Assembly (NCBI GenBank): GCA_030390025.1
Contig: CM059431.1
Location: 143,408,001 to 143,472,000 of the forward strand
Length of the DNA: 64,000 nt
Origin: Squalus acanthias
Lineage: Eukaryota
Direction: 5' to 3'
A program made the translations under genes and the position numbers. Positions 443-64,000 of the stretch are shown in pieces; positions within the stretch are counted from its first letter, which is position 1, and the number at the start of each line of letters is the position of its first letter. The notes under the pieces were generated by a model. That model was not told the origin of the DNA and ran no database searches. It was given only the letters and a program-made list of their open reading frames with translations.

Positions 443-2216
443 CTCAACACTCGGCATTTGTGCAGTACGGGTCCCAGCCGCTGGAGTCCTTCACACTGGA
501 TGGAGCAGTTCTGTAGGTCGAGTTGTTTTATTGTATCACAGAGTCCAATGATGTGAGAGAGGACCGCACAGTCAATCGGGGTCAATGTCAATTCACTAAA
601 TGTAAGTGTTTCCACAGACCCCACTGTTTTCCGAGCCAGTGCTTTATTCTGAGACTCAAACAGGTAGTGGAATGTGTTCAGGAGGGTCCTTTTACTAGTT
701 TCACTCCACATGTTCTCAATCTGTCCTTCAACCTTCTCCTTCACCCAGTCAATCACGCGGCAGGTGGTTTGATGAAGAAATGGACTCAGAAACTCCTCCA
801 GGGGCCGAGCTGCCTGTGGGGAGGAGAGACCAGCAACAAAACGGAGAAATATCTCAAATCGCCCATCTTTCTTGCTGTGGGCTTCTCTGAGGAGTTTCAG
901 GATGTCCCCAGGATCTGGAGTCAGGAATTGTGCGAGTGCAGCTACAAACTCTTGGATGGTGAGGTGCGGGAATGTGTACACCACGCTCTGGGCAGAATCA
1001 TCTCTCTCCAAAAGTTCCATCATGAACCCAGACAGGAACTGGGAAGGTTGCAGATTATACTTGATCAAATCTCCATTTCTAAACACAATCTTCTTCTCGG
1101 AGACTCCTGTGAAGGCCATCTCACCAAGCTTCAGTAACACATCACGGGGGCTTTCAATCTCTCGGCCATGGTTTTTCAGAATGTTGTAAATATAGTAGGA
1201 ATATAGTTGGGTGATGGTCTTGGGAACTCGCTGCTGATTCCTGTATCTTTGTGTAAAGAAGGGACCCAGTGAGAGGCCGAGGATCCAGCAGTAGGAAGGG
1301 TTGTAGCTCATGGTGTACAGGATCTCGTTCTCCTCCACGTGTTTGAAAACAGCTGCTGCCACCGTCTGATCTTCAAAAAACTTGTTGAAATATTCCTTCC
1401 GTTCTTCACCAACAAATCCCAGGATTTCAGCCCAGACACTGATCTCAGCCTTTTCCAGTAAATATAATGCAGTGGGGCGGCTGGTCACTAGCACTGAACA
1501 TCCTGGGAGCAGCTTGTGCTGTATTAAACTGTACACAATGTCAGACACTTCACACCAGTCTTCGGGATCTGTGCACATGTGCTGAGGTTCTGTATTTCTC
1601 CGATTGTCAGCAAAATCGATCCTGTCCTTGAATTCATCCAAACCATCGAATATGAACAGCAATCCCTCTGGGTTCTTCCAGAGCTCTCCCAGAATATTCC
1701 CAAAGTAAGGATACAGATCCAGTATCAGATTCCTCAGGTTTATTCTACAGTTAATAGCATTCAAATCCCGGAATTTAAAACTGAAGACAAATTGAAAGTG
1801 TGGGTATATTTTCCCAGTGGCCCAGTCATGAACAATCTTTTGCACCATTGTTGTTTTTCCAATCCCCGGAACTCCGCTCACTGCTGCTGAATTCCCAGAA
1901 TTGGATTGCCAGAAGAAACTCTGAATTTTCTGGAACAAACTCCCTCTCTGGGAAAAACTGCTCTGGAACAATTGATCAGTTCGGATTTTTTCCAGCTCTC
2001 TCCGGAGATGTTTCTCTCTCCACTCTTCATGGCTTCGGCCTCTTGCCAGCAGTTCATGTTCTACAAGTGTCCGATCTCGAACAGTAGAAATGACCGTTAG
2101 CTCAGCGTATCGATCAACCAGTTGGAAAATCTTAACCTTCTCCTTTATTAGGATAGTGTTCACTCTCAGTGTTTCAGTTTGTACCCGGAGTGTTTCCTTG
2201 TGTTTCTGTTGAAGAT
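443..2216 (-). CDS. NLR gene, large NACHT exon (FISNA-like region, NACHT NTPase, winged helix/HD2, first LRR); NLRP3/NLRC3-like fish-type NLR
   Basis: The 611-aa ORF has Walker A GVPGIGKT, Walker B LLFIFDGLDE, sensor-1 VTSR, WH motif FPHLTIQEFVAA and a terminal LRR (IKQLDLQNCSI). Acceptor ...ttgaag|ATCTTC at 2216 (phase 1). Donor TTGAG|gtaac at 443 (phase 2, typical before NLR LRR exons). The gene continues beyond the left edge. Confidence 0.95.
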
Positions 2217-2639
2217 CTTCAATTGGAACAGACAGAAAGTGGTTCTCAATGTGAGTTGTATTGACATAAAACAACTTATCAACACCATTTCGCTATTCAG
2301 TAAACTGTTGCGAGATTTAATTCACAGCTTCAAAAAAGGTGAGTGTAGAAATTAAAACTCAGTTAATGGAAACCTCGCTTGAAAGTGAACAATGACCGAG
2401 AAAAGTTTCAAATCCTCACTTGATTCTAATAGTCACTGAACATGGAGATTTCTATGACGGTGATATCTTCCCTCTGATGGTTAATACTGTCTGGCCTGTC
2501 CTGTACTATAGACATCTCATTACAAATCCACACATAATCCTGTTTATATGACAATTGAGGTTCTAGTGGATCAATCTGTGAAGCCGTCCGTGGTGCTTCC
2601 CTTCTGCAGAAGTAGGAAATAGGACATTGGAGATCAGTG

Positions 2640-3735
2640 TGAGAGGGGCAGACTGAATGGTCAGGAGTCCCATTATTTTCAGTTCAGTCCTTGGGCAGTT
2701 GATCTGGGGTAGTGTGTGCACTGGAAGAGGGAGAGGCTGTGAATGAATAGAAGACCTACTATTATTATATCAGGCCTTGGGCAGGCTATTTATATTATTG
2801 TGTACACTGGGTGAGGGACAGACTGTGAATGGTCAGGGGTCCCACTATTATATCAAGCCTTGAGCAGGTTATCTGGTGTATTGTTTGCAGAGAGATGGAC
2901 AGTTTGTGAATGTACAGAAGTTGCACTGTTACTGTATCTGGCCTTGAGCAGGGTGTCTGTGGTATTGTTTGCACTGGGTGAGGGACAGACTGTGGATGGA
3001 AATCAATTCCAATCAGCGGCCTATAACTGAGATTCGAATCCCATATTCTCCCCATCACCAAGACCGCCTACTTCCACCTCTATAATAACGCCCGTGTCAG
3101 CCCCTGAAAACCTCATAAAAGCCTTTGTTACCTCCAGACTCGACTATTCCAACGCTCTCCTGATCAGCCTCCCACCTTGCACCCTCCGTAAAGTTGAACT
3201 CATCCAAAACTCTGCTGCTCATAGCCTAACGCGCACCAGGTCCCGTTCATTCTTGACTCCTGTGCTCGCTGACCTACATCAGCTCCCGGTCTGGCAACGC
3301 CTCGAACTCATTCTAGTATTCAGATCCCTCCATGGCCTCGACCCCTCCCAATCGCTATAACCTCCTTCAGCACTGCAAACCTCAGAGATCTCTGCACTCC
3401 TCCAATTTTGGCCTTTTGCGCATTCCCTGATTTTCATTGTTTAATCATTGGCGGCCATGCCTCCAGCTTCCTAAGCCCTAAGCTCTGGAATTCCCTTGCT
3501 AAACCTCTCCATCCCTTAACAGAAGATCCACTTTCATTGTATCAGGACTCGGGCAGGTTATCTGGGGTACTGAAAAGAGAAGGACAGAATCAATAGACTG
3601 GAATTAAATTGCTGTTGTTTCAGGACTCGGGCAGGTTATCTGTGGTATTGTGTGCACAGAGAGGAGCAGACTGTGAATAGACTGGAGATAAATTGCTGTT
3701 GTTTCAGGACTCGGGCAGGTTATCTGGGGTATTAC
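2640..3735. repeat. degenerate ~80-86-bp minisatellite interrupted by an L2 fragment
   Basis: The motif (cttg/ctcg)ggcaggttatctg recurs near 2690, 2776, 2859, 2943, 3548, 3626 and 3710. Confidence 0.6.
3030..3515 (+). mobile_element. L2-clade LINE, 3' fragment
   Basis: Translation AFVTSRLDYSNALL...LIQNSAAHSLTR...LTPVLADLHQLPV is the characteristic L2 ORF2 C-terminus. Confidence 0.8.
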
Positions 3736-6464: not shown

Positions 6465-7345
6465 TGTTGCTGGGCCAGTAATCCAGAGATAACGGTTCAA
6501 ATCCCATCGTGGACATTTCATGAATTTGAATTCAAATCAAATCTGAAGCATTTCAAAATAAAAAGCTAGTATCAGTAAAGATTGTCATAAAATCGAATGT
6601 CCTTTACATCTGGTCTATACGTGACTCCAGTCCTTCACCAATGTGGTGGCCTTTGAAATGGCGGAGAAAGCCTCGAGAAAGAAAGATACAGAAGAATAAA
6701 ACTGGGCGGACCGCTTGGCTTCGGCACTGGATTCGGACACGACGAAGGAACACCCAGCCCAGTCAACCCTGCAAAACCCCCCTCACTAACACCTGGGGAC
6801 TGGTGCCAAAGTAGGTGTTCCACACATTAGTCAAACAACGGTGTGACGTAGTGATAATTATAAAATCATATTTATTAGCCAACGTCCCAGGCTCCTCCAT
6901 CAGCATTCATCGGTATTTCCTGTCCCACCGGCAGGACAGACCCACCAGTGGTGGCCCACAGTGATATACCCTCAGATGCAAGTGCCCTGGGAATCATTTA
7001 CATTGATTCTGGAGCCAATGAAGTCTCATGCCTTCAGGTCAAACTTGGGCAAGGAAACCTCCTGCTGATTACCACCTACCACTCGCCCTCAGCCGATGAA
7101 TCAGTACTCCTCCATTTTCAATACAACTTGGAGGAAGCACTAAAGGTGACAAAAGGTGCAGAATGTACAGCAGTTGGGAGATTGAATGCCTAGTTCCCAG
7201 CCAATTCGATATCAAGAAACACATGAATGCACTGGGCACAGCAAATGCTGCAAGTCCGGATAACATTCTGGCTGTAGTATTGAAGATCTGTGCTCTGGAA
7301 CTAACCACACCTCTAGTCAAGTTGTTCCAGCACATCCACAACACT
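6465..7345 (+). mobile_element. decayed 5' part of the tRNA-headed CR1-group LINE (family B)
   Basis: B-box GTTCAAATCC at 6495-6504, then a SINE-like body, then APE-start sequence (ctcactaacacctggggactggtgccaaag, ~6782) and the remnant SPDNILAVVLKICALEL. Colinear with the 11393-14556 element. Confidence 0.7.
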
Positions 7346-7573
7346 GGGTAGTGAGCAGAAGGTTGGGATTAGACTAGGTGGGATATTAACAGTAATGGGT
7401 AGTGAGCAGGAGGTTGGGATTAGACTCGGTGGGATATTAACGGTAATGGGCAGTGAGCAGGAGGTTGGGATTAGACTAGGTGGGATATTAACAGTAATGG
7501 GCAGTGAGCAGGAGGTTGGGATTAGACTAGGTGGGATATTAACGGTAATGGGCAGTGAGCAGGAGGTTGGGAT
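7346..7573. repeat. 51-bp minisatellite, ~4.5 copies
   Basis: Tandem units of gggtagtgagcaggaggttgggattagactaggtgggatattaacagtaat. Confidence 0.9.
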
Positions 7574-11392: not shown

Positions 11393-14300
11393 ATTGCTGT
11401 ATCCAGTGCGCTCAGCCGTTTCTTGATATCACGTGGAGTGAATCGAATTGGCTGAAGACTGGCTTCTGTGATGGTGGAGACCTCGGGAGTAGGCCGACAT
11501 GGATCATCCACTCAGCACTTCTGGCTGAAGGTGGTTGCAAACACTTCAGCCTTGTCTTTTGCACTCACGTGCTGGGCTCCACCATCATTGAGGATGGGGA
11601 TATTCATGGAGCCTCCTCCTCCCGTTAGTTGTTTCATGGTCCAGCACCATTCACGACTGGATGTGGCAGGACTGCAGAGCTTAGATCTGATCCGTTGATT
11701 GTGGGATCGCTTAGCCCTGTCTATAGCATGCTGCTTCCGCTTTTTAGCATGCATGTCGTCCTGTGTTGCAGCTTCCTCAGGTTGGCACCTCATTTTTAGG
11801 TATGCCTGGTGCTGCTCCCAGCATGCTGTTCTACACTCCTATTGAACCAGGGTTGGTGGTAATGGTAGAGTTAGGGATATGCCGGGCCATGAGGTTACAG
11901 ATTGTGGTGGAATACAATTCTGCTGCTGCTGATGGTCCACAGCGCCTCATGAATGCCCAGTTTTGAGCTGCTAGATCTGTTCTGAATCTATCCCATTTAG
12001 CACGGTGGTAGTGCCACACAACACGATGGAGGGTGTCCTCAGTGTGAAGACAGGACTTCGTCTCCACAATGACTGTCACTGCTACCAATGCGGACAGATG
12101 CATCTGCGACAGGTAGATTGGTGAGGACGAGGTCAAGGTCAAGCAGGTTTTTCCCCTCCTGTTGGTTCTCTCACCACCTGTCGCAGGCCCAGACTGGCAG
12201 TTATGTCCTTCAGAGCTCGGTCAGTAGTGGTGCTACCGAGCCACTCTTGGTGATGGACATTGAAGTCCCCCACCCAGAGTACATTCTGTGCTCTTGCTGC
12301 TCTCAGTGCTTCTTCCAAATGGTGTTCAACATGGAGAACTATGATTCATCAGGGGAGGGAGGATGGTAGGTGCTAATCAGCAGGAGGTTTCCTTGCTTAA
12401 CCTGAAGCCATGAGACTTTAATATTGAGGACTCCCAGGGCCAGTACTTCTCAACTGTAGACCACTGTGCCGCCACCATGGTGGGTCTGTCCTGCCGGTGG
12501 GACAGGACATACCCAGGGATGGTGATGGATGAGTTCGGGACATTAGCTGAAAGATATGATTCTGTGAGTATGACTATGTCAGGCTGTTGCGTGACTAATC
12601 TGGGTGACAGCTCTCCCAATCTTGGCACAGGTCCCCAGATGTTGGTGAGGAGGAATTTGCAGGGTTGACTGGGCCATTGCTGTGTCCATAGCCGAGGTCA
12701 ATGCTGGGTGGTCCGTCCAGTTTCATTCTTATTATTTTGTTTCGTAGCGGTTAGTTACAACTGAGTGACTTGCTAGGCCATTTCAGAGGGCAGTTAAGAG
12801 TCAACCACATTGCTGTGGGTCTGGAGTCACATATAGGCCAGACCAGGTAAGGAAGGCAGATTTCCTATCTTAAAGGACATTAGTGAACCAGATGGGTTTT
12901 TACAACAACTATTACTGACACTAGCTTTTTATTCCAGATTTATTTAATGAACTGAATTTAAATTCCCCAGCTGCTGTGGTGGGATTTGAACTCACGTCTC
13001 TGGATCATTAGTCCAGGCCTCTGGATTACTAGCCCAGTGACATTACCACTACGCTACTGTATATCAAGCAAAGACTATGGGCCCCGACAACATCCCAGCT
13101 ATCGTGCTGAAGACTTGTGCTCCAGAACAAGCCACGCCTCTAGCTAAGCTGTTCCAGTACAGCTACAACACTGGCATCTATCCAACAATGTGGAAAACTG
13201 CCCAGGTATGTCCTGTCCACAAAAAGCAGGACAAATTCAATCCGGCCAATTACCACTCCATCAGTCTACTCTCAATCATCAGCAAAGTGATGGAAGGCGT
13301 CATCGACAGTGCTATCAAGTGGCACTTACTCACCAATAACCTGCACACTGATGCCCAGTTTGGGTTCCGCCAAGACCACTCGGCTCCCGACCTCATTGCA
13401 GCCTTGGTTCATACATGGACAAAGGAGCTGAATTCCAGAGGTCACGTGAGAGTGACTGCCCTGGACATCAAGGCATTTGACAGAGTGTGGCATCAAGGAG
13501 CCCTAGTAAATCTGAATTCAATGGGAATCAGGGGGAAAACCCTCCACTGGCTGGAGTCATACCTAGCACAAAGGATCATGGTTGCAGTGATTGAAGGTCA
13601 ATCATCACAGCCCCAGGACATCGCTGCAGGAGTTCCTCAGGGCAGTGTCCTAGGCCCAACCATCTTCAGCTGCTTCATCACTGACCTTCCCTCCAACATA
13701 AGGTCAAAAATGGGGATGTTCGCTGATGACTGCACAGTGTTCAGCGCCACTCACAATTCCGCAGATAATGAAGCAGTCCATGCCCGCATGCAACAAGACC
13801 TGGACGATGTTCAGGCTTGGGCTGATAAGTGGCAGGTAACATTCGTACCACAGAAGTGCCAGGCAATGACTATCTCCAACAAGCGAGAGTCTAACCACCT
13901 CCCCTTGACATTCAACGGCATTACCATCGCCGAATCCCCCACCATCAACATCCTGGGGGTCACCATTGACCAGAAACTTAACTGGACCAGCCAGATAAAT
14001 ACTGTGGCAACAAGAGCACGTCAGAGGCTAGATATTCTGCAGCGAGTGTCTCACCTCCTGACTCCCCAAAGCCTTTCCACTATCTACAAGGCACAAGTGA
14101 GGAGTGTGATGGAATACTCTCACTTGCCTGGATGAGTGCAGCTGCAACAACACTCAAGAAGCTCGACACCATCCAGGGCAAAGCAGCCCGCTTGATTGGC
14201 ACCCCATCCACCACCTTAAACATTCACTCCCTCCACCACCGGCATACCGTGGCTGCAGTGTGTACCATCTACAAGATGCACTGCAGCAACTCGCCAAGGC

Positions 14301-14556
14301 TTCTTCGGCAGCACCTCCCAAACCCATGACCTCTTCCACCTAGAAGGACAAGGGCAGCAGGCGCATGGGAACACCACTACCTCCAAGTTACCCTCCAAGT
14401 CACACACCATCCTGAATTAGAAGTATATCGCCGTTCCTTCATCGTCGCTGGGTCAAAATCCTGGAACTCCTCCCTAACAACACTGTGGGAGTACCTTCAC
14501 CACACGGACTGCAGCGGTTCAAGGCAGCAGCTCACCACCACCTTCTCAAGGGCAAT
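11393..14556 (+). mobile_element. near-full-length CR1-group LINE family B (tRNA-like head plus APE-RT, no ORF1) with its 5' half (11393-13060) inverted
   Basis: Minus part: A box 13056-13046, B box 12991-12982, APE (TNIWG...QPDIVILTESYL). Plus part: 352-aa RT ORF ([14 protein letters not shown]) and 3' end. The halves join at ...GGATACAGCAA / AGCAAAGACTATGG. TSD ATATTGC at 11391-11397 and 14555-14561. Confidence 0.88.
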
Positions 14557-16634: not shown

Positions 16635-17097
16635 TGGTAGCCTTATCAATAAAGGATGGGATAAACACAGTAGAGAGAAAGGATCTTAGCAACGAAAATC
16701 AAGAAGTAGAATCAGTTTGGGTGGAGCTAAGAAAGAGCAAGGGGCAGAAAACATTGGTTGGAGGTGTTTATACACCCCCATACAGTAGTTGTAATGTAGG
16801 GCAGAGCATAAATCAGGAAATTAGAGGTGCATGTAGCAAGGGTAATACAGTAATCATGGGGAACTTTAATCTACATATAGACTGGGGAAACCAAATTTAC
16901 AGTAATAGTGTGGAGGACATTATCTGAGTCAATGGGACTCTCCCTGACCTTTGTCCCCAGTCCATCTTCAGGACCAGTGTGTACCTGAGTCAATGGGACT
17001 CTCTCTGACCTTTCTCCCCAGTCCATCTCCAGGACTAGTGCATACCTGAGTCTGAATTTTATAGTGAGTTTGAAAGTGATTTAGTTAAATCCGAAAC

Positions 17098-17747: not shown

Positions 17748-18050
17748 ACCTCCAAAACCCACGACCTCTTCCACCTTGAAGGACAAGGGCAGCAGGCGCA
17801 TGGGAACACCACCACCTCCAAGTTCCCCTCCAAGTCACACACCATCCTGACTTAGAAGTATATCGCCGATCCTTCATCGTCGCTGGGTCAAAATCCTGGA
17901 ACTCCCTACCTGACAGCAGTGTGGGAGTACCTTCACCACACGGACTGCAGCGGTTCAAGAAGGCAGCTCACCACCACCTTCTCAAGGGCAATTAGGGATG
18001 GACAATAAATGCTGGCCTCGTCAGCGACGCCCATATCCCATAAAAATGAA
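17748..18050 (+). mobile_element. 3' end of LINE family B nested in CR1
   Basis: Near-identical to 14315-14556, and extends to the complete tail (gggcaattagggatggacaataaatgctggcc...cccatatcccat). Confidence 0.85.
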
Positions 18051-20187: not shown

Positions 20188-22950
20188 AAGAAGTGGGTTT
20201 TAGGCGGGTCTGACAGGAGAGGGAGGCAGGGGGGTTTAGGTGCGGAATTGCAGAGCAGAGAGCCTGGACAGCTGAAGGCACGGCCGCCACGATTGGGATT
20301 AGAAGAGGGTGAAATGCACCAGATATCAGTGTTGGAGGAACAGAGAGATCTTGGAGGTGGGGGATTGTAGAGCTGGAGGAGGTTACAGAGGCTGGAAGGG
20401 ACAAGACCATGAAGGGGTTTAAACAAGCATGAGAGTTTTAATTTGGAGCAGCTGGGGGACCAAGAGCCAATGTAGGTTCACAAGGACAGGGGTGATCGCT
20501 GAGCAGGGTTTCATGCATTTAAGTTGACGGAGGGTGAAAGGATCAAAGCCGACCGGGAGAGCACTGGGAAATTCGAGTCTCCAGGTGATAAAAGTATGGA
20601 TGAGGGTTTGAGAAGATGGGTTGAAGCAGGTACGAAGATGGATGATGTTACGGAGGTGGAAGTTGGCAATCTTTGACCTGGAGAGAATATCTGGTCAGAA
20701 GCTGAGCTTGGCGTCAAATAGAACACTGCAATTTATTTATTCGTTTATGGGATGTGGGCGTCGCTGGCAAAGCCAGCATTTGTTGCCCATCACTAATTGC
20801 CCTTGAGAAGGTGGTGGTGAGCCGCCGCCTTGAACCGCTGCAGTCCGTGAGGTGAAGGTACTCTCACAGTGCTGTTAGGGAGGGAGTTCCAGGATTTTGA
20901 CCCAGCGACGATGAACGATCGGCTGACATACTTCGAAGTCAGGATCATGTGTGTCTTGGACGGGAACTTGGAGGTTTTGGTGTTCCCATACGCCTGCTGC
21001 CCTTGTGCTGCCGAAGAAGCCTTGACGAGTTGCTGCAGTGCATCTTGTAGATTGTACACACTGCAGCCATGGTAGCCGGTGGTGGAGGAAGTGAATGTTT
21101 CAGGTGGTGGATGGGGTGCCAAGCAAGCGGGCTGTTTTGTCCTGGATGGTGTCAAGCTTCTTGAGTTTTGTTGGAGCTGCACTCATCCAGGCAAGTGGAG
21201 AGTATTCCATCACACTCCTTACTTGTGCCTTGTAGATGGTGGAAAAGCTTTGGAGAGTCAGGAGGTGAGACACTCACCACAGAATACCCAGCCTCTGACC
21301 TGCTCTTGTTGCCAAACTATTTGTGTGGCTGGTCCAGTTAAGTTCCTGTCAATGGTGACCCCCAGGATGTTGATGGTGGCGGATTCGGCGATGGTAATCG
21401 CGTTGAATGTCAAGGGGGGGGTGGTTAGATTCTCGCTTCTTAGAGATAGTCATTGCCTGCCACTTGTGTGGTGCGAATGTTGCCTGTCACTAATCAGCCC
21501 AAGCCTGAACGTCGTCCAGGTCTTGTTGCATGTGGGCATGGACTGCTTCATTATCTGAGGAGTTGTGAATGGCGCTGAACACTGTGCAGTCATCAGCGAA
21601 CATCCCCAATTCTGACCTTATGTTGGAGGGAAGGTCCTTGATGAAGCAGCTGAAGATGGTTGGGCCTAGGACACTGCCCTGAGGAACCCCTGCAGCCATG
21701 TCCTGAGGCTGTGTTGACTGACCTCCAACCACCACAACCATCTTACTTTGTGTTAGGTATGACTCCAGGCAGTGGTGCGTTTTACCCCCGATTCCCATTG
21801 ACTTCAGTTTTACTAGGGCTCCTTGATGCCACACTTCGGTTAAATGCTGCCTTGATGTCAAGGGCAGTCACTCTCACCTCACATCTGGAATTCAGCTCCT
21901 TTGCCATGTTTGGATCAAGGCTGTAATGAGGTCGGGAGCCAAGTGGTCTTGGCAGAACCCAAACTGGGCATCAGTGAGCAGGTTATCGGTGAGTTAGTGC
22001 CGCTTGATAGCACTGTCGATGACACCTTCCATCACTCTGCTGATGATTGAGGGTAGACTGATGGAGCGGTATTTGGCCGGGTGGGATTTGTCCTGCTTTT
22101 TGCGGACAGGACATACCCGGACAGTTTTCCCCATTGTCGGATAGATGCCAGTATTGTAGCTGTACTGGAACAGCTTGGCTAGAGGCGCGGCTAGTTCTTG
22201 AGCACAGGTGTTGGATCAGCACGATAGCCAGGATGTTGTTGGAGCCCATAGCTTTTGCTGTATCCAGTGCGGTCAGCCGTTCCTTGATATCACGTGTGAA
22301 CATTATGTTTAAATCTGAGACACTGATTGGGACGGGGAGGGAACAGAATTCCTGGCAGGGGCCGAAGTCCATGTCTTTGGTCTTCCCAATGTTTAATTGG
22401 AGAAATGTGTAGCTCATCACAGATGAATGTCAGACAAGCAGCGTGAGAAAGCAGAGGCAGTGGAGGGTTCGAGAGATGTGGTGGAGATGTGGAGCAGAGT
22501 GGTGTCAGGGTACATGTGAAAGCTGACCACTTGTCTTCGGATGTCTCCAAGGGCCAGCACGTAGATGAGAAATAGGAGGGGACGAGGGGTGATCCATGGG
22601 GGACTCCAGAGGTAACAGTGTGAGAGCGGGAAGAGAAGCTGTTGATGGAGATTCTCTGACTACTAGATGGTTAAAAGTGGAAACAAGCGACGGCAGTCCC
22701 TCTGAGCTGGACAACGGAGGAGGATGTTGTGCTCGACCGTGTCAAAGACTGCAGAAGTCGAGAAAAATGAGGAGTGATAGTTTACCACGGTCACAATCTT
22801 AGAATGTGTCGATTGGGACTTTGGTTATTGTCATTTCAGTGGTGTGGCAGGAGCAGAAACCCGATTGGAGAGATTCAAACATGAGGCTGTGAAAAAGATG
22901 GGTAGAAATTCAGGAGGCGACAAAACATTGAGGAAAGGGAGGATGGAGAT
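20188..22950 (-). mobile_element. decayed L2-clade LINE interrupted by a family-B copy
   Basis: Translations FKPLHGLVPSSLCNLLQ...GGRAFS and FLQLNIGKTK, plus a GVPQGS-like remnant near 22600. Confidence 0.7.
20730..22295 (-). mobile_element. LINE family B, 5'-truncated RT copy
   Basis: VWHQGALVKLKSMGIGGK...[20 protein letters not shown]...FADD. The tail at 20735-20800 matches 17990-18050. Confidence 0.88.
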
Positions 22951-25994: not shown

Positions 25995-26222
25995 GAACAG
26001 CAAAATACTGGAGATGCTGGAAATCTGTCATAAAAGCTGAAAATGCTGGAAACACTCAGCGGGTCAGGCAGTGTCTGTGGGGAGGGGACGGTGGGGTTAA
26101 CGGTTCAGGTCAATGACCTTTCCTGAGAACAGGTTCAGGATCTGAAACATTAACCCCACCTTCCTCTCCCCACAGTCGCTGCCTGACCCGCTGAGTGTTT
26201 CCAGCATTTTCAGCTTTTATTT
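25995..26222. mobile_element. palindromic non-autonomous element (Penelope-like inverted pLTR or MITE-like)
   Basis: ~80-bp inverted arms (ataaaagctgaaaatgctggaaacactcagcgggtcaggcag... / ...ctgcctgacccgctgagtgtttccagcattttcagcttttat), flanked by the direct repeat tctaatatta. Confidence 0.65.
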
Positions 26223-28889: not shown

Positions 28890-31390
28890 TGCTGGGCTCT
28901 GCCCCAGAGTCACCTCTTATATCAAACCCCTTTACACTAAAACATACACAAGATTCAATTGTGACTGCTTGCTCAGAGACAGAAACTGATCTCACTTCAT
29001 ATCCCACTGCACAGCCTCATGCTAGATAATTGTGCTCGGTGGTCAGACTCTCCCAGTTTCATTCTCACCATTTCCTGACTTACCCTATAACCCTTGTGTA
29101 CTGTCTCCAGGAGCAGGGTGTATCTGAGTCAAGAGGACTTTTTCTTAATTTCACCGCAGTCGATCTCTGAAGCTCTTTGAATCGGAAGGGTTCTCTCTGG
29201 TTGGTGCTCTCACAATCCTGTGCTGGTTCACCTGCTGTTGTTCCTCAGTCTACAATCCCTGTTTACTTCCAGCTGTGCACCTTCCTCAATCACTCCATCA
29301 TTCACCGGGAGATCTAATTATGGCAGGGCAGAAAATGAGAATAATATTGAAAGCGTGAAATAATGTAATGTAGACTTTTATTCTGCATAATAAAAGTTAA
29401 ATTTCAAGGCCGAGTACTTTTGCCCCTTTCCGCAGATCCACAGCCCAGCTTCCTGAATGCCCCCAGAGTTCTGAGCGCAAATGTGCAATTTACTCTGCTT
29501 TAGACAAACAGTTGCTGTCTGATCACACTGGGCCCATCCTCCCCGGGTTACACACTGTCTGATCTCAGTGGGCCCATCCTCCCCGGGTTACACACTGTCT
29601 GATCTCACTGGGCCATCCTCCCCGGGTTACACACTGTCTGATCTCACTGGGCCCATCCTCCCCGGGTTACACACTGTCTGATCTCACTGGGCCCATCCTC
29701 CCCGGGTTACACACTGTCTGATCTCACTGGGCCCATCCTCCCCGGGTTACACACTGTCTGATCTCACTGGGCCCATCCTCCCCGGGTTACACACTGTCTG
29801 ATCTCACTGGGCCCATCCTCCCCGGGTTACACACTGTCTGATCTCACTGGGCCCATCCTCCCCGGGTTACACACTGTCTGATCTCACTGGGCCCATCCTC
29901 CCCGGGTTACACACTGTCTGATCTCACTGGGCCCATCCTCCCCGGGTTACACACTGTCTGATCTCACTGGGCCCATCCTCCCCAGGTTACACACTGTCTG
30001 ATACTGGGCCCATCCTCCCAGGGTTACACACTGTCTGATCTCACTGGGCCCATCCTCCCAGGGTTACACAATGTGTGATATCACTGGGCCCATCCTCCCC
30101 GGGTTACACACTGTCTGATCACACTGGGCCCATCCTCACCCGGTTACACACTGTCTGATCTCACTGGGGCCATCCTCCCCAGGGACTCAATCTCCATGGC
30201 CTTGCTCAGGTTGAGGCAGATGGACTGGAATGTCTTTTCACTGCGCTCCTGGGAAAAGGCAGACAGTGGGAAAGTTCACTACATCGTCCCCAGTGCTGGG
30301 AGGAATACATCTGAACATAGCGACAGGAGGAGGCCATTCAGCCCCTCCAGATTGTTCCACCATTCAATTAGATCATGGCTGATCTGGGTCTTCACTCAAT
30401 GCATCCGCCGTGGTCCGTCAACCCTTAATGCCTAACAAGCATCTATTAATCTCAGTTTTGGTATTTTCCAATTGACCACGCCTCAACAGAGAGTTCCAGA
30501 TTTCCACTATCCTTTTGGTGAAGAAATACTTTGACATCATTAGAGCTTAGCTCTAATTTGAAGGTTATGCCTCATTGTTCAAGACTCCTCTGCCAGAGGA
30601 AATAATCTCTCTATCCACCTGACCGAATCCTTTAATCATCTTAAACACCTCAATTAGATCACCACTTCATCTTCTGGGGAATACAAAACCTAATCAATGC
30701 AACCTGTCCTCATAATTGAACACTTTTATCTCCGGTGTCATTCCAATGAACCTGCGCAGCATCCCCTCCAGACCAATATATCTTCCGAGGGGCGGTTCCC
30801 AGAACTGAACAACATGTGGAATAATATTCACTATTCAAAATGTATTGAGACAGGTGTTATCAAATTTAGAACAAAGCGTTAATAAACCACGGCAAGAGGA
30901 AGTCTTACGAATTATAGGTATCTATATAACCTACTTCTCAGAAACAACAGGTTCCTACTCCTAGGCTGCCCATTACATAGACTGCAGTTTACACTGAACG
31001 TTTCACAGTCCTTCAGATACAAGTTGGAGCCAGCACCTCTAGTGCTGAGATCAGACAGATTGTTACCCTGGAAATAGAGGAACTCGATTGCCGAAAATAA
31101 CTGAACACAGAAATAACAAAACCTACATCACATGTTCTGAGTTTAGTTCAGAACATTAACCCTGAACATTCAGCCAGTGTTTCTGACCATGAAGCTGTGA
31201 TTCCAATAATGGATTTTTTACTCCACCAGACCAGACACTGCAGATTTACTGAATCCACCGTCAGTTCCCTCTGTACAGAACATTATGCAGCGCCGCATCT
31301 GCAGAGGTACATCCATAAAATCGTCACATTGCTAGAAATAGAGCCTGTCTGCTCTGAAAATCTGATTGTCTTAAACCATCTGTTAACAGT
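28890..31390. repeat. segmental duplication unit A of the 5' module
   Basis: Aligns by eye with 36075-37020 plus 39120-40505, and with 47390-48310. Confidence 0.85.
29515..30185. repeat. 40-bp minisatellite (ctgtctgatctcactgggcccatcctccccgggttacaca), ~17 copies
   Basis: Near-perfect tandem units. Confidence 0.95.
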
Positions 31391-36284: not shown

Positions 36285-36835
36285 TCCCATCTCCAGGACC
36301 AGTGTGTATCTGAGTCAATGGGACACTCTGACCTTTCTCCCCAGTCCATCTCCAGGACCAGTGTGTATCTGAGTCAATGGGACTCTCTCTGACCTTTCTC
36401 CCCAGTCCATCTCCAGGACCAGTGTGTATCTGAGTCAATGGGACTCTCTCTGACCTTTCTCCCCAGTGCATCTCCAGGACCAGTGTGTATCTGAGTCAAT
36501 GGGACTCTCTCTGACCTTTCTCCCCAGTCCATCTCCAGGACCAGTGTGTATCTGAGTCAATGGGACTCTCTCTGACCTTTCGACCCAGTCCATCTCCAGG
36601 ACCAGTGTGTATCTGAGTCAATAGGACTCTCTCTGACCTTTCTACCCAGTCGATCTCCAGGACCAATGTGTATCTGAGTCAATGGGACTCTCTCTGACCT
36701 TTCTCCCCAGTCCATCTCCAGGACCAGTGTGTATCTGAGTCAATGGGACTCTCTCTGACCTTTCTACCCAGTCCATCTCCAGGACCAGTGTGTATCTGAG
36801 TCAATGGGACTCACTCTGACCTTTTTCCCCAGTCG
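36285..36835. repeat. 61-bp minisatellite (ccatctccaggaccagtgtgtatctgagtcaatgggactctctctgacctttctccccagt), ~9 copies
   Basis: Tandem units, each containing TGAGTCA. Confidence 0.95.
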
Positions 36836-37140
36836 ATCTCTGGAAGCTCTTTGAATCGGAAGGGTTCTCTCTGGTTGGTGCTCTCACAATCCTGTGCTGG
36901 TTCACCTGCTGTTGTTCCTCAGTCTGCAATCCTTGTTTACTCCAGCTGTGGACCTTCCTCAATCACTCCGTCATTCCCCGGGAGATCTAATTGTGGCAGG
37001 GCAGAAAATGAGAACAATATTGATGGTGAAGTAGAAGCTCACCTACCAACCACAGCCATATTATTAATTTATTCACTGTTGTATCCTCCACTTCCCCAGA
37101 GAACACATCCCATCCCATTGCTCGAAATTACCAGTCAGTT

Positions 37141-38348
37141 TCTCACTGGGACCATCCTCCCTGGGTTACACACTGTCTGATCTCACTGGGCCCATCCTCC
37201 CCGGATTACACACTGTCTGATCTCACTGGGCCCATCCTCCCCGGGTTACACACTGTCTGATCTCACTGGGCCCATCCTCCCCGGTTTACACACTGTCTGA
37301 TCTCACTGGGCCCATCCTCCCCAGGTTTCACACTGTCTGATCTCACTGGGCCCATCCTCCCCAGGTTTCACACTGTCTGATCACACTGGGCCCATCCTCC
37401 CCGGGTTACACACTGTCTGATCTCACTGGGCCCATCCTCCCCGGGTTACACACTGTCTGATCTCACTGGGCCCATCCTCCCCAGGTTTCACACTGTCTGA
37501 TCTCACTGGGCCCATCCTCCCCAGGTTTCACACTGTCTGATCACACTGGGCCCATCCTCCCCGGGTTACACACTGTCTGATCTCACTGGGCCCATCCTCC
37601 CCGGGTTACACACTGTCTGATCTCACTGGGCCCATCCTCCCCGGATTACACACTGTCTGATCTCACTGGGCCCATCCTCCCCGGGTTACACATTGTCTGA
37701 TCTCACAGGGCCCATCCTCCCCGGTTTACACACTGTCTGATCTCACTGGGCCCATCCTCCCCGGTTTACACACTGTCTGATCTCACTGGGCCCATCCTCC
37801 CCGGGTGACACATTGTCTGATCTCACTGGGCCCATCCTCCCAGGGTTACACACTGTCTGATCTCACTGGGCCCATCCTCCCCGGGTTACACACTGTCTGA
37901 TCTCACTGGGCCCATCCTCCCCGGGTTACACACTGTCTGATCTCACTGGGCCCATCCTCCCCGTATTACACACTGTCTGATCTCACTGGGCCCATCCTCC
38001 CCAGGTTTCACACTGTCTGATCTCACTGGGCCCATCCTCCCCAGGTTTCACACTGTCTGATCACACTGGGCCCATCCTCCCCGGGTTACACACTGTCTGA
38101 TCTCACTGGGCCCATCCTCCCCGGGTTACACACTGTCTGATCTCACTGGGCCCATCCTCCCCAGGTTTCACACTGTCTGATCTCACTGGGCCCATCCTCC
38201 CCGGGTTACACACTGTCTGATCTCACTGGGCCCATCCTCCCCGGGTTACACACTGTCTGATCTCACTGGGCCCATCCTCCCCAGGTTTCACACTGTCTGA
38301 TCACACTGGGCCCATCCTCCCGGGGTTACACACTGTCTGATCTCACTG
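37141..38348. repeat. 40-bp minisatellite, ~30 copies (same unit as 29515-30185)
   Basis: Near-perfect tandem units. Confidence 0.95.
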
Positions 38349-38679
38349 GTATTTTCATTCTAACTCCCGCATCTCGCCAAACCCTCAGTTCCGGGGCTGT
38401 GTGTTTATTTTGGAGATCTTCCTCACAGTAAATTTCCTGCCGCCTGAGACTCCCCCATTCTCACTGCTCTGGGCGGAAATGCGCCATTTTGTGTCCAAAG
38501 TGCCTGAACCCACCGCGCCCTCCACCCCCGGCCCAGCCCCTGTATTGTGAGCCGGTTCAGCACATTCCCCGGGAGCTGATGCTGACAGGAATCTCCCCTC
38601 CGTTTCTCTGCCGAGTTACAAAGCGGGTCTGTGACACTGTGAAGCCCCTCCCTCCCTCGCTGTGATCTAAACTCTGGGC

Positions 38680-39105
38680 TGAGCAGCCGCGCTGTCAGGC
38701 CGTGTGCTGAATGGAGCCGAGTTCCCTCAGTCACAGAGCGCGGCCCCTGTAACCCGGGCAACCATCCTGTTTCTTACCGTCACTCACACCGGCCCGCGCC
38801 GCCCGGCCCGGCACACAGCAAACCCCGCCCACCGCACATGCCCGGATCAGCAAGGGAGCGACACTGTGCCTGCGCGGGAGAGCAAGGGAGCGGGACTGCG
38901 CCTGCGCGGGAGAGCAAGGAGTGGCGCTGCGCATGCGCGGGAAAGCAAGGGAGCGGCTCTGCGCCTGCTCGGGAGAGCAAGGAGCGGCACTGCGCCTGCG
39001 CAGGAAAGCAGTGGAGCGTCATTGCGCCTGCGCGGGAGAGCAAGGAGCGGCACTGCACCTGCGCGGGAGAGCAAGGGAGCGGCACTGCGCCTGCGCGGGA
39101 GTGTA
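38680..39105 (-). promoter_or_regulatory. CpG-island-like promoter with tandem NRF1-type motifs and a first-exon donor
   Basis: CpG-dense. About eight ~31-bp units carry (T)GCGCCTGCGC, with one perfect TGCGCATGCGC at 38928-38938. Minus-strand donor GACG|gtaaga at 38778/38777. Confidence 0.65.
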
Positions 39106-47385: not shown

Positions 47386-47549
47386 TTATAATAAAGCACA
47401 CACAAAATTCAGAGTGACTGTGTGTTTAGAGACAGAAACTGATCTCACTTCACATTTCATTGCACGGCCTCATGCTGGATAATTGTGCTCAGTGGTCAGA
47501 CTCGCCCAGTCTCATTGTCACCATTTCCTGCCTTACTTTGTGTCCTGTC

Positions 47550-48027
47550 TACAGGACCAGTGTGTATCTGAGTCAATGGGACTCTCTCTGACCTTTCTCC
47601 CCAGTCCATCTCCAGGACCAGTGTGTATCTGAGTCAATGGGACTCTCTCTGACCTTTCTCCCCGGTCCATCTCCAGGACCAGTGTGTATCTGAGTCAATG
47701 GGACTCTCTCTGACCATTCTCCCCAGTCCATCTCCAGGACCAGTGTGTATCTGAGTCAATGGGACTCTCTCTGACCTTTCTCCCCAGTCCATCTCCAGGA
47801 CCAGTGTGTATGAGTCAATGGGACTCTCTCTGACCTTTCTCCCCAGTACATCTCCAGGACCAGTGTGTATCTGAGTCAATGGGAATCTGATCTTTCTCCC
47901 TGGTCCATCTCCAGGACCAGTGTGTATCTGAGTCAATGGGACTCTCTCTGACCTTTCTCCCTGGTCCATCTCCAGGACCAGTGTGTATCTGAGTCAATGG
48001 GACTCTCTCTGACCTTTCTCCCCGGTC
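47550..48027. repeat. 61-bp minisatellite, ~8 copies
   Basis: Same unit as 36285-36835. Confidence 0.95.
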
Positions 48028-48604
48028 GATCTCTGGAAGCTCTTTGAATCAGAAGGGTTCTCTCTGGTTGGTGTTCACAATCCTGTGCTGGTTCACCTGC
48101 TGTTGTTCCTCAGTCTACAATCCATGTTTACTCCAGCTGTGGACCTTCCTCAATCACTCCATCATTCACCGGGAGATCTAATTATGGCAGAGCAGAAAAT
48201 GAGAATATTGAAAGCGTGAAATAATGTAATGTAGACTTTTCTTCTGCTTACCAAAAATTAAATTTCAAGGCCGAGTATTTGTTTGATTTTGTCCCTTTCC
48301 TCAGATCCTCAGTTCCGGGGCTGTGTGTTTAGTTTGGAGATTTTCCTCACAGTAAATTTCCGGCCGCCTGAGACTCCCCCAATCTCACTGCTCTGGGCGG
48401 AAATGCTCCATTTTCTGTCCAAAGTGCCTGAACCCACCGCGCCCTCCACCCCCGGCCCAGCCCCTGTATTGTGAGCCGGTTCAGCACATTCCCCGGGAGC
48501 TGATGCTGACAGGAATCTCCCCTCCGTTTCTCTGCCGAGTTACAAAGCGGGTCTGTGACACTGTGAAGCCCCTCCCTCCCTCGCTGTGATCTAAACTCTG
48601 GGCT

Positions 48605-48995
48605 GAGCAGCCGCGCTGTCAGGCCGTGTGCTGAATGGAGCCGAGTTCCCTCAGTCACAGAGCGCGGCCCCTGTAACCCGGGCAACCATCCTGTTTCTTA
48701 CCGTCACTCGCACACCGGCCCGCGCCGCCCGGCCCGGCCCGGCACATAGCAAACCCCGCCCACTGCACATCCCCGGATCAGCAAGGAGCGGCACTGCGCC
48801 TGCGCGGGAGAGCACGGGAGCGGCACTGCGCCTGCACGAGTGGGCAAGGGTGCGGCGCTGCGCCTGCGCAAGAGGGCAAGCGCGCGGCACTGCGCCTGCG
48901 CGGAAGTGTAAGGGCGTGGCACTGCGCCTGCACGCGAGAAAAAGGGAGCGGGTCTGCGATATCAAGGGAGCGACACTGCGCCTGCGCGGGAGGGA
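48605..48995 (-). promoter_or_regulatory. second CpG-island-like promoter with NRF1-type repeats and an ETS-like site
   Basis: Several TGCGCCTGC(GC) motifs at 48795-48990, CGGAAGTG at 48901, and donor GACG|gtaaga at 48702/48701. Confidence 0.62.
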
Positions 48996-51540: not shown

Positions 51541-54500
51541 AGTCAGACTGATCCGTCCCCTCTCATAATGAACTGCCCCCTCTCGGAGACTGAACCGTCC
51601 CCTCTCTCAGACTGAACCGCCCCCTCTCTCAGACCGAACCGCCACTTGTCTCAGACTGAACCCCCCCCTTGCTGAGACTGATCTGTCCCCTCCCCTGACT
51701 GAACCGCCCCCTCTCTCTGACTGAAACGCCCCCTCGCTCAGAAAGAACAACCCCCTCTCTCAGAATGAACCGCCCCCTCTCTCAGACTGAACCGTCCCCT
51801 CTCTCAGACTGAACCGCCCCCTCATTCAGACTGAACCGCCTCCTTTCTCAAACTGAACCGTCCCCTCTCTCAGAGTGAACCGTCCCCTCTCTCAGTCTGA
51901 ACCGTCCACTCTCTCAGACTGAACCACCCCTCTCTCAGACTGAACCGTCCCCTCTCTCAGACTGAACCGCCCCCTCTCTCACACAGAACCGTCCCCTCTC
52001 TGATACTGAACCGTCCCCTCTCATACTGAACCTTCTCATCTCTCAGACTGAACCGCCCAACTCTGAGACTGAACCGTTCCCACTCATACTGAACCACCCT
52101 TCTCTCAGACTGAACCGCCCCCTCTCTGAGACGGAACCACCCCCTCTCTCAGACGGAACCGTCCCCTCTCTCAGACTGAACCGCCCCCTCTCTCAGACAG
52201 AACCGCCCCCTCTCTCAGATGGAACCACCCCCTCTCTCAGACTGAACAGCCCCCTACTCAGAATGAACCGTCCCCTCTCCCAGACTGACCCATCCCCTCT
52301 CTCAGACTGAACTGCCCCCTCTCTCAGACTGAACCACCCCCTCTCTCAGACTGATCCATCACCTCTCTCAGACTGAACCGTCCCCTCTCTCAGACTGAAC
52401 CGGCCCCTCTCTAAGACTGAACCGCCGCCTCTCTCAGTCTGAACTGCCCTCTCTCAGACTGAAACCCACTCTCTCAGACTGAACCCCCCCTCTCAGACTC
52501 AACCGCCCCCTCTCTCAGACTGAACCGTCCCCTCTCTCCGACTGAACCGTCCCCTCTCAGACTGAACCGCCCCCTCTCTCAGACTGAACCGTCCCCTCTC
52601 TCAGACTGAACCACCCCCTGTCTCCGACTGAACCGTCCCCTCTCTCAGACTGAACCGCCCCCTCTCTCAGACTGAACCGTCCCCTCTCTCAGACTGAACC
52701 ACCCCCTCTCTCTGACTGAACCGTCCCCTCTCAGACTGAACCACCCCCTCTCTCATACTGAACCCCCCCTCTCTCAGACTGAACCGTCCCCTCTCTCAGA
52801 CTGAACCCCCCCTCTCTCAGACTGAACTGTCCCCAATCTCAGACTGAACAGCCCCCTCGCTCAGACTGATCCGTCCCCTCTCATAATGAACTGCCCCCTC
52901 TCGGAGACTGAACCGTCCCCTCTCTCAGACTGAACCGCCCCCTCTCTCACACAGAACCGTCCCCTCTCTGATACTGAACCGTCCCCTCTCATACTGAACC
53001 TTCTCATCTCTCAGACTGAACCGCCCAACTCTGAGACTGAACCGTTCCCTCTCATGCTGAACCACCCTTCTCTCAGACTGAACCGCCCCCTCTCTCAGAC
53101 GGAACCACCCCCTCTCTCAGACGGAACCGTCCCCTCTCTCAGACTGAACCGCCCCCTCTCTCAGACTGAACCGTCCCCTCTCTCAGACTGAACCACCCCC
53201 TGTCTCCGACTGAACCGTCCCCTCTCTCAGACTGAACCGCCCCCTCTCTCAGACTGAACCGTCCCCTCTCTCAGACTGAACCACCCCCTCTCTCTGACTG
53301 AACCGTCCCCTCTCAGACTGAACCACCCCCTCTCTCATACTGAACCCCCCCTCTCTCAGACTGAACCGTCCCCTCTCTCAGACTGAACCCCCCCTCTCTC
53401 AGACTGAACTGTCCCCAATCTCAGACTGAACCGCCCCCTCTCTCACACAGAACCGTCCCCTCTCTGATACTGAACCGTCCCCTCTCATACTGAACCTTCT
53501 CATCTCTCAGACTGAACCGCCCAACTCTGAGACTGAACCGTTCCCTCTCATGCTGAACCACCCTTCTCTCAGACTGAACCGCCCCCTCTCTCAGACGGAA
53601 CCGCCCCCTCTCTCAGACGGAACCGTCCCCTCTCTCAGACTGAACCGCCCCCTCTCTCAGACAGAACCGCCCCCTCTCTCAGACGGAACCACCCCCTCTC
53701 TCAGACTGAACAGCCCCCTACTCAGAATGAACCGTCCCCTCTCCCAGACTGACCCATCCCCTCTCTCAGACTGAACTGCCCCCTCTCTTAGACTGAACCA
53801 CCCCCTCTCTCAGACTGATCCATCACCTCTCTCAGACTGAACCGTCCCCTCTCTCAGACTGAACCGGCCCCTCTCTCAGACTGAACCGTCCTCTCTCTAA
53901 GACTGAACCGCCGCCTCTCTCAGTCTGAACTGCCCTCTCTCAGACTGAAACCCACTCTCTCAGACTGAACCCCCCCTCTCAGACTCAACCGCCCCCTCTC
54001 TCAGACTGAACCGTCCCCTCTCTCCGACTGAACCGTCCCCTCTCTCAGACTGAACCGCCCCCTCTCTCAGACTGAACCGTCCCCTCTCTCAAACTGAACC
54101 ACCCCCTCTCTCCGACTGAACCGTCCCCTCTCTCAGACTGAACCGCCCCCTCTCTCAGACTGAACCGTCCCCTCTCTCAGACTGAACCACCCCCTCTCTC
54201 TGACTGAACCGTCCCCTCTCAGTCTGAACCACCCCCTCTCTCATACTGAACCCCCCCTCTCTCAGACTGAACCGTCCCCTCTCTCAGACTGAACCCCCCC
54301 TCTCTCAGACTGAACTGTCCCCAATCTCGGACTGAACAGCCCCCTCGCTCAGACTGATCCGTCCCCTCTCATAATGAACTGCCCCCTCTCGGAGACTGAA
54401 CCGTCCCCTCTCTCAGACTGAACCGCCCCCTCTCTCAGACCGAACCGCCACTTGTCTCAGACTGAACCCCCCCCTTGCTGAGACTGATCTGTCCCCTCCC

Positions 54501-60500: not shown

Positions 60501-62405
60501 CCGCCCCCTCTCTCATACTTAACCATCCCCCCTCTCAGACTAAACCGTCCCCTCTCTCAGACTGCACCGTCCTCTCTCTCAGACTGAACCGCCCCTCTCT
60601 CAGACTGAACCGCCCCTCTCTCAGACTGAACCGCCCCTCTCTCAGACTAAACTTAACCTCTCTCAGACTGAACTGACCCCTCTCTCATACTGAATCTCCT
60701 CTCTCTCAGACTATACTGCCCCTCTCTCAGAGTGTTCCATCCCTCTCTCAGACTGAACTGCCCTCTCTCTCAGGCTGAACCGTCCCCTCTCTCACACTGG
60801 ATCGTCCCTCTCTCAGACTGAACCGTCCCCTCTCTCAGACTGAGCCGCCCCCTCTCTCAGACTAAACCGTCCCCTCTCTCAGACTGCACTGTCCCCTCTC
60901 TCAGACTGAACTGCCCCCTCTCTCAGACTAAACCGTCCCCTCTCTCAGGCTGAAACGCCCCCTCTCTCAGACTGAACCGTCCCACTCTCAGACTGAACCG
61001 TCCCCTCTCTCAGACTGAACCGTCCCCTCTCTCAGGCTGAAACGCCCCCTCGCCTCGACTGAACCGTCCCCTCTCTCAGACTAAAACCCCCTCTCTCAGT
61101 ATTAACATTGACCTCTCTCAGACTAAACTGTCCCCTCTCTGAGACTGAACTGCCCCTCTCTCAGACTGATTCCCCCTCTCTCAGACTGAACCGCCCCTCT
61201 CTCAGGCTGACCCGTCCCTCTCTCAGACTGAACCACCCATTTCTCAGACTGAACCACCCCTCTCTCAGACCGGACCGCCCCCTCTCAGGCTGAACCACCC
61301 CTCGGCAGAATGTACCGCCCCCTATCATGGGCTGAACCACCCCCTCTCTCAGACTGAACCGTCCCCTCTCTCAGAATGCACCGCCCCCTCTCTCAGACTG
61401 AACCGCCCCTCTCTCAGACTGAACCGCCCCTCTCTCAGACTAAACTTAACCTCTCTCAGACTGAACTGACCCCTCTCTCATACTGAATCTCCTCTCTCTC
61501 AGACTATACTGCCCCTCTCTCAGAGTGTTCCATCCCTCTCTCAGACTGAACTGCCCTCTCTCTCAGGCTGAACCGTCCCCTCTCTCACACTGGATCGTCC
61601 CTCTCTCAGACTGAACCGTCCCCTCTCTCAGACTGAGCCGCCCCCTCTCTCAGACTAAACCGTCCCCTCTCTCAGACTGCACTGTCCCCTCTCTCAGACT
61701 GAACTGCCCCCTCTCTCAGACTGAACCGTCCCCTCTCTCAGGCTGAAACGCCCCCTCTCTCAGACTGAACCGTCCCACTCTCAGACTGAACCGTCCCCTC
61801 TCTCAGACTGAACCGTCCCCTCTCTCAGGCTGAAACGCCCCCTCGCCTCGACTGAACCGTCCCCTCTCTCAGACTAAAACCCCCTCTCTCAGTATTAACA
61901 TTGACCTCTCTCAGACTAAACTGTCCCCTCTCTGAGACTGAACTGCCCCTCTCTCAGACTGATTCCCCCTCTCTCAGACTGAACCGCCCCTCTCTCAGGC
62001 TGACCCGTCCCTCTCTCAGACTGAACCACCCATTTCTCAGACTGAACCGCCCCTCTCTCAGACCGGACCGCCCCCTCTCAGGCTGAACCACCCCTCGGCA
62101 GAATGTACCGCCCCCTATCATGGGCTGAACCACCCCCTCTCTCAGACTGAACCGTCCCCTCTCTCAGAATGCACCGCCCCCTCTCTCAGACTGAAGCGCC
62201 CGCTCTCTCAAACAGAACTGCCCCTGCTCTCAGCCGGAAGTGACCCGTCTCTCAGACTGAACCACCCCTCTCAGAATGCACCGCCCCCTCTCTCAGACTG
62301 AACCACCACCTCTCTCTGATTGAACTGGCCCCTCTCTCAGACTGAACCTCCACTCTCTCAGACTGAACTTTCCCCTCTCTCAGACTGAATCGCCCCCTCT
62401 CTCAG
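51541..62405. repeat. ~10.9-kb satellite of a 22-bp unit (cagactgaaccgtcccctctct) with higher-order blocks
   Basis: About 500 variant monomers with recurring diagnostic variant strings and an exact 793-bp offset duplication near the right end. Confidence 0.97.
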
Positions 62406-62407
62406 AT

Positions 62408-63329: not shown

Positions 63330-64000
63330 AAAACCTACTTGACCTCGTCCTCACCAATCTACCTGTTGCAGATGCATCTGTGCATGACAGCATTGGCAGC
63401 AGTGACCACCGCACATTCATTGTGGAGACAAAATCCCGTCTTCACACTGAGAACTCCCTCCATCGTGTTGTGTGGCACTACCACCGTGCTAAATGGGATA
63501 GATTCAGAACAGATCTAGCAGCTCATAACTGGGCATTCCTGAGGCGCTATGGGCCATCAGCAGCAGCAGAATTGTATTCCACCACAATCTGTAACCTCAT
63601 GGCCTGGCATATCCCTCACTCTACCATTACCTGCAAGCCAGGGGACCAACCCTGGTTCAACAAGGAGTGTAGAAGGGCATGCCAGGAGCAGCACCAGGCG
63701 TACCTAAAAATGAGGTGTCAACCTGGGGATACTGCAACACAGGACTAAATTCATGCTAAAATGCAGAAGCAGCATGCTATAGACAGGGCTAAGCGATCCC
63801 ACAATCAACGGATCAGATCAAAGCTCTACAGTCCTGCCGCATCCAGTCGTGAATGGTGGTGGACCGTCAAACAACTAACGGGGGGAGGAGGCTCCATGAA
63901 TATCCCCATCCTCAATGATGGTGGAGCCCAGCACGCGAGTGCAAAATACAAGGCTGAAGTGTTCGCAACCAACTTCAGCCAGAAGTGCCGAGTGGATGAT
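63330..64000 (+). mobile_element. LINE family B, APE C-terminus/linker, running off the window
   Basis: SDHRTFIVETKSRLHTENSLHRVVWHYHRAKWDRFRTDLAA matches the inverted part of the 11393-13060 copy. Confidence 0.88.

Follow-up and report, generated by a model that had tools for sequence, protein, structure and literature searches.

The retrotransposon at 11393–14556 of the window, which is the whole 64-kb stretch of Squalus acanthias DNA analysed here, raises the question of whether a protein-coding LINE can be the template of RNA polymerase III (Pol III). LINEs are taken as RNA polymerase II (Pol II) units, and Pol III products are taken as short and non-coding. A Pol III RNA that codes for protein and mobilises itself, if true, would break both rules. 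It would also offer a natural system in which a Pol III transcript is translated independently of a cap and of AUG, and would show that deletion can turn a LINE directly into a SINE. In an initial annotation, made from the letters of the window, the element was read in this manner, i.e., as an autonomous SINE-LINE chimera with a tRNA-like head, transcribed end to end by Pol III and translated from an uncapped RNA.

Identity of the element and its copies in the window

The element belongs to a non-LTR family that is 3.3 kb long and present in thousands of copies; this copy is decayed and inverted at its 5' end. Alignment of 27 colinear full-length copies (38 fetched) gave a majority sequence of 3295 nt, in which the 5' edge was sharp and an A tail was present; the aligned copies differed from it by 2.3–4.7%. 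The majority sequence carried a single 970-codon APE-RT frame starting at position 330, with leader uORFs of at most 48 codons, and the absence of an ORF1 held genome-wide in this sequence. An RVT_1 match was located in the 3' half of the ORF (E 5.7e-35), and Exo_endo_phos (Pfam) was found on a sister copy.

The suggestion that the family might already be catalogued proved correct. SquAca_Zenon-1 is 3314 nt long compared with 3295 nt for the majority sequence here (Stuart et al. 2026, PMC13343379), and over the first 400 nt, the part compared, the two were approximately identical by eye. On this sequence match, the family is regarded as an elasmobranch Zenon corresponding to SquAca_Zenon-1. 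In the available parts of PMC13343379, the Zenon elements of sharks, rays, coelacanth and hagfish were all without ORF1 and all had poly-A. The present element shared the single APE-RT ORF without ORF1, the poly-A tail and, in the first 400 nt, the identity with a named consensus. It showed neither an esterase ORF1 nor grouping with vertebrate CR1, by which canonical vertebrate CR1 is recognised. In an RT tree, which contained no named Zenon, its separation from L2-like proteins and from the host CR1 had a support of 0.98, and its place was near an amphioxus protein. Rather than a classical CR1 deprived of its ORF1, the family is the catalogued elasmobranch Zenon, and ORF1 is missing throughout the Zenon clade. 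The full element is not a SINE, as it has coding capacity, while its deletion products of approximately 390 nt have none. Identity with DeuSINE/SacSINE1 and MetaSINE, which were known by description alone, was set aside; SacSINE1 has an L2 tail. Thus, the family and its missing ORF1 were known already. The head, the avoidance of T-runs and the absent AUG went unremarked in the available parts of PMC13343379, where the text gave zero matches for tRNA, polymerase III and promoter and the supplement gave zero for tRNA. In the openly accessible literature searched, neither an autonomous LINE transcribed by Pol III nor a Zenon with a tRNA head was found to be described.

On mapping to the majority sequence, element positions 5–1749 of the window copy corresponded to 13060–11394 (minus strand) and 1745–3238 to 13067–14555 (plus strand), by which the inversion described earlier was shown to be real. 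The 3' tail formerly assigned to this copy was not present: the copy stops ~57 nt short of the end of the majority sequence and has no A tail. Twin priming is a mechanism of 5' inversion that joins the 5' end of an element to its middle, and the inversion here fits twin priming on a full-length RNA. The features in the window are listed in Table 1.

Table 1. Zenon-derived features in the window, with the evidence for each
Feature	Position	Strand	Evidence
tRNA-like head, element 5' end	12978..13060	-	Boxes and Rfam tRNA; sharp conservation edge in 27 full-length copies
Non-coding body	12755..12977	-	3' ~145 nt (element 186-329) is the least variable part
In-frame AUG-GCC-UAG micro-uORF, strong Kozak context	12773..12781	-	In five Zenon-1 consensuses
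Out-of-frame ATG, 48-codon uORF overlapping the APE start; dispensable	12724..12726	-	ATG/ATA counts, intact ATA subfamily
Inverted 5' half of ORF: basic leader, APE (from ~12658), linker; decayed	11394..12754	-	Mapping; Pfam Exo_endo_phos on sister copy
3' half of ORF: reverse transcriptase and C-terminus; 3' UTR, A tail missing	13067..14555	+	RVT_1, mapping
5'-truncated sister copy, element 1708-3295, 3' end present	20740..22296	-	Mapping to majority
Sister copy fragment, element 970-1640, continues past window end	63330..64000	+	Mapping to majority
Sister copy 3'-end fragment, element 2995-3291	17748..18044	+	Mapping to majority
Head, APE start and RT start of an old copy with internal deletions, inside multiplied block	6470..7347	+	Mapping, genome matches

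The copy at 6470–7347 had been presented as an independent recurrence of the head-body-APE order. The family structure was confirmed genome-wide. This copy was a single old insertion. It was 71–79% like the family, and its 29 fetched genome matches shared its deletions and flanks. Therefore, it was multiplied within a duplicated block and does not represent a second family. With its flanks (loci L099–L128), it belongs to a unit that recurs many times, on contigs of chromosome scale as well as on small ones; this may be a satellite region or one holding a tandem gene family.

Several other repeats were observed in the window. The interval 51543–62406 (10.9 kb) was a C-rich tandem array, strongly skewed between the strands, in which a 22-nt unit occurred ~503 times. 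Minisatellites of 40 nt and 61 nt recurred (29515–30180 and 37141–38349; 16924–17052, 36287–36840 and 47548–48033), which suggests a locally duplicated block. A 190-bp inverted repeat (86% arms) at 26030–26220 was derived from a short dispersed repeat also found near 39277 and 51090, and GC-rich 32-nt tandem repeats rich in CGCCTGCGC were located at 38849–39101 and 48781–48958. Elsewhere in the genome, copies L035, L053, L067, L156 and L157 lay inside or against other copies of the Zenon family. The closest named protein matches came from sharks. The annotated shark proteins P0001, P0002 and P0005–P0008 (aldo-keto reductase-like, LRRC32-like and GPR139-like) contained pieces of the Zenon frame, reflecting either gene-model contamination or exonisation.

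tRNA-like head and T-run depletion

The A box (13056–13046) and B box (12991–12982) were found on the minus strand exactly where they had been annotated. The Rfam tRNA match (12978–13057, minus strand; 22.3 bits, E 0.033) was below the gathering score of 29, and no tRNA was called at the head by ARAGORN. In the element, no ribozyme or other Rfam family was found, the only matches being the sub-threshold tRNA and two at chance level. The A box lies at element positions 9–19 and the B box at ~73–84, i.e., at a tRNA-like distance from the fixed 5' end, as in Pol III type-2 promoters. The spacer between the boxes (window 13040–12990, minus strand) contains a duplicated anticodon-arm-like hairpin, the stem of which varies between species and still pairs (by eye).

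A query running from head to APE gave 8577 candidates in the 3.7-Gb genome, and in all 40 that were scored, the head-to-APE junction was spanned and colinear. Among copies chosen on APE alone, 21 of 29 reached within 21 nt of the common 5' end. A further 60 copies were picked by a motif close to position 360; of these, 34 reached within 25 nt of this 5' end, and four more had an A box diverged by eye. No alternative leader was common to the flanks of 33 truncated copies, and no consistent target-site duplications were found in 26 copies. Together with the sharp edge in the 27 full-length copies, the genome-wide consensus bore out the head as the consistent 5' end. Repeated template-switch chimeras, in which an abundant SINE joins truncated LINE cDNAs with no replicating unit, could draw on the SINE-like element that exists with the same head and tail. 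However, the junction was colinear in all 40 places scored and in the five species, and no alternative leader was found. This largely refutes the explanation, which is considered highly improbable.

In the available supplement of PMC13343379, the A/B-box head opened the Zenon consensuses of all five elasmobranch species, and two hagfish consensuses and one coelacanth consensus were without it. From these sequences, the head appears to be an elasmobranch acquisition. Across the five species' consensuses, the A box was kept in all and the B box in four, the stingray being one base short, while the spacer changed (by eye). Among 126 loci in this genome, no shared variant was found in the B box. 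No B-box motif was found upstream of the frames of 68 metagenome relatives, many of whose contigs had little upstream DNA.

The absence of the head from the other Zenons listed also suits a Zenon of the ordinary kind, transcribed by Pol II, to whose 5' end a SINE was once added by capture. The head would then survive as part of the promoter for Pol II, or as an element acting in the RNA or in cis. Non-LTR elements are indeed regarded as Pol II units, and Pol III has been described as length-limited, which counts against the Pol III reading (PMC10886601). Nevertheless, the Pol II explanation is considered rather unlikely. The boxes were retained in the consensuses while the spacer diverged by eye, and the inferred RNA start falls exactly at the tRNA-like +1 with no excess of extra G. 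Of 35 heads counted by hand, 4 had a G ahead of the terminal GGG, which is not more than chance would give from the flanks; this lack of excess cap-derived G gives weak support for an uncapped RNA.

Pol III is terminated by runs of four or more T (T4). As annotated, both parts of the window copy had no T4 on the sense strand, the sister copy counted over 63338–64000 had none and that over 20730–22295 had one, and the neighbouring CR1s were rich in such runs (6–9 in each of five CR1 stretches). The old copy, counted over 6465–7345, had one. T4 was likewise zero in the majority sequences of both subfamilies. Compared with a synonymous-codon shuffle, for which 1.6 runs were expected (P 0.15–0.16), this zero was not significant alone. 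A third-position model gave 3.2 expected (P 0.026), and a base shuffle of the whole element gave 3.8 (P 0.02). Runs of three T numbered 5, compared with 11.4 expected (P 0.004–0.006).

The observed/expected ratios of the element were 0.72 for TT and 0.26 for TTT, below all 68 relatives (minima 0.87 and 0.73), which were metagenome loci with long frames (12 of 80 loci without a 500-aa frame dropped), of unknown hosts and many of them distant. These relatives had 3–56 T4 runs each. In the host CR1 (29 copies), the ratios were 1.09 and 1.25, with 10 T4 runs compared with 11.3 expected. Synonymous T was avoided before T with an odds ratio of 0.43 (P 0.034); the ratio was 0.72 in the host CR1 (P 0.25), and 1 of the 68 relatives was as low as the element. 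Phe codons were TTT:TTC = 3:15, and the Phe content of 1.9% was lower in 1 of 105 homologues.

In the copies, C>T rates were 0.025, 0.025, 0.022 and 0.019 where runs of 1, 2, 3 and 4+ T were made, respectively, and the copies gained 0.72 T4 per element after insertion. Since the rates were alike whether or not T-runs were built, genomic mutation does not explain the depletion. The TTT of the leader became TTTT in 13 of 108 copies by separate mutations on different backgrounds and never as a clade; TTTT occurred there in 5 of 100 matches to a search pattern, the first of a total of 8507, and in none of the species consensuses available. These sequence patterns point to selection in source elements or an RT-specific bias.

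In a Pol II element, the T-poverty would have another cause, e.g., avoidance of U-rich decay, splice or polyadenylation signals. The non-significance of T4 = 0 alone (P 0.15–0.16) and the TpT depletion also reported in a frog L2 (10.1101/788562) agree with this. Both were counted against the Pol III reading, as were the overall T-poverty of the element (19%) and the mild T3 deficit of the host CR1 (34 compared with 39.7 expected, P 0.056). The depletion is nevertheless specific to T-runs, which argues against the Pol II explanation.

Reading frame and translation start

The claim that no in-frame ATG precedes APE, made for the decayed window copy, was also true of the majority sequences of the two subfamilies. 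Their first in-frame Met was at codons 284 and 287, codon 284 being beyond the APE domain, while in all 41 related frames of at least 900 aa, the first Met was at codon 84 or earlier. The first 480 nt contained nine AUGs, none leading into the frame. A scanning capped mRNA would meet all nine, which is a further point against a Pol II transcript.

At the out-of-frame AUG site, 1134 exact matches read ATG compared with 991 reading ATA, and all four contigs of one other organism read ATA. From 14 near-complete copies (of 40), the ATA subfamily gave an intact 973-codon frame without T4. A frameshift from the out-of-frame ATG as the required start was rejected, because the ATA subfamily amplified equally with an intact frame. 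As this subfamily amplified equally without a nearby out-of-frame AUG, a non-AUG start is likely for the Zenon frame. The two subfamilies were separated by 25 synonymous and 24 non-synonymous changes (omega ~0.37, P 0.0005), and the 970-codon frame is under purifying selection. Across contigs from four other organisms, APE held four changes, all of them synonymous, and the upstream changes were mostly non-synonymous. Thus, translation probably starts shortly upstream of the APE domain. No conserved near-cognate start codon stood out in this region.

Shared variants occurred at 4 of 144 sites in element 186–329, compared with 201 of 2799 in the ORF, and this segment was nearly identical by eye across the five species' consensuses available. 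It is a candidate translation or packaging module. It ends with the in-frame AUG-GCC-UAG, which is followed by a second in-frame stop in this genome; this micro-uORF might, speculatively, act as a reinitiation primer. Folding of the leader was no better than that of shuffles (z -0.16). The unremarkable folding and the lack of a conserved near-cognate start were counted against the preferred explanation. IRES, reinitiation and non-AUG options have been discussed for non-LTR elements in the available part of PMC3894237.

The absent AUG would need no special initiation if labour were split: Pol III would make the template RNA, and host transcripts made by Pol II, running through embedded copies or spliced into them, would contribute the cap and AUG and yield the protein in trans. 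Of the CR1-Zenon-like LINEs of whale shark, 39% lie in introns (10.1101/443036), and the mobilisation of non-coding deletion products indicates that trans action happens. However, an intact, selected frame in two amplifying subfamilies is explained more simply if the copied RNA encodes its own protein, and split labour is considered improbable.

Deletion products, transcription and known systems

At the 3' end, AATAAA preceded the A tail by ~40 nt and is in line with Pol II transcription; an inverted repeat resembling a hairpin was also present there, as was a T-run of variable length, followed by As. Among the first 100 of 7212 tail matches, a single T preceded the As in 55 and four or more T in 16 (hand count), and in the contigs of four other organisms, the majority tail mostly had one T before the As. 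The T-runs of T+ SINEs lengthen after insertion, according to the available part of PMC8466645. The tail T-run, mostly one T, was not diagnostic of a terminator, and the lack of a fixed terminator was counted against the Pol III reading. Head-to-tail deletion junctions gave 166 exact matches, with the junction location fixed by the search pattern; many different junctions were found, some repeated. Larger internal deletions were also common. By structure, the head-body-tail deletion products of approximately 390 nt are tRNA SINEs.

The conserved boxes, tRNA-like start, T-run avoidance, absent AUG and SINE derivatives would be jointly explained by Pol III transcription and non-AUG translation. 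The fixed head, missing ORF1, T-run avoidance and lack of an in-frame AUG in the initial annotation were upheld, while T4 = 0 alone did not carry significance. Our preferred reading, held with slightly better than even confidence, is an autonomous elasmobranch Zenon LINE likely transcribed end to end by Pol III and likely translated without an AUG. In this mechanism, TFIIIC would bind the A and B boxes, and Pol III would start at the terminal GGG, read through the T-poor body and stop where it first meets a T-run downstream, whether in the tail or in the flank. Ribosomes would be drawn to the uncapped RNA via the conserved leader module, and translation would begin between element positions 330 and ~450. 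The protein would then bind its own 3' stem-loop and A tail, leading to target-primed reverse transcription. The chances are judged evenly balanced that sharks and rays carry a retrotransposon with a 3.3-kb Pol III mRNA and cap- and AUG-free translation, predating the shark-ray split and giving rise to a tRNA SINE by deletion.

In known systems, R2 and L1 ORF2 are retrotransposon proteins made without a cap or AUG. R2 is co-transcribed by Pol I and released by a ribozyme, whereas no ribozyme family match was found in the Zenon here, and L1 ORF2 lies after ORF1, which Zenon does not have. The elasmobranch Zenons named in the available parts of PMC13343379 (SquAca_Zenon-1/-2/-3; CarCar, RhiTyp, ScyCan and HypSab Zenon-1) belong to the same sequence class, without ORF1 and with an A tail. 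The lepidopteran CR1-Zenon and its deletion derivative Persaeus likewise show a single ORF, a poly-A tail and short internally deleted offspring (PMC6740152, in part). However, Persaeus is described there as without tRNA homology or a Pol III promoter, whereas the elasmobranch deletion products carry both boxes. The T+ SINEs B2, Dip and Ves resemble the element in their tRNA head, AATAAA, short or lengthened T-run and A tail; unlike the coding Zenon, they are short, non-coding and, in the available part of PMC8466645, confined to mammals. An autonomous LINE of the RTE clade with a tRNA-like sequence has been mentioned in passing, and SINE bodies there likewise derive from LINE ends. The position and promoter role of that tRNA-like sequence are undiscussed in the passage available. 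There, a LINE that has undergone deletion gains the head, whereas in the present family the complete LINE already carries it.
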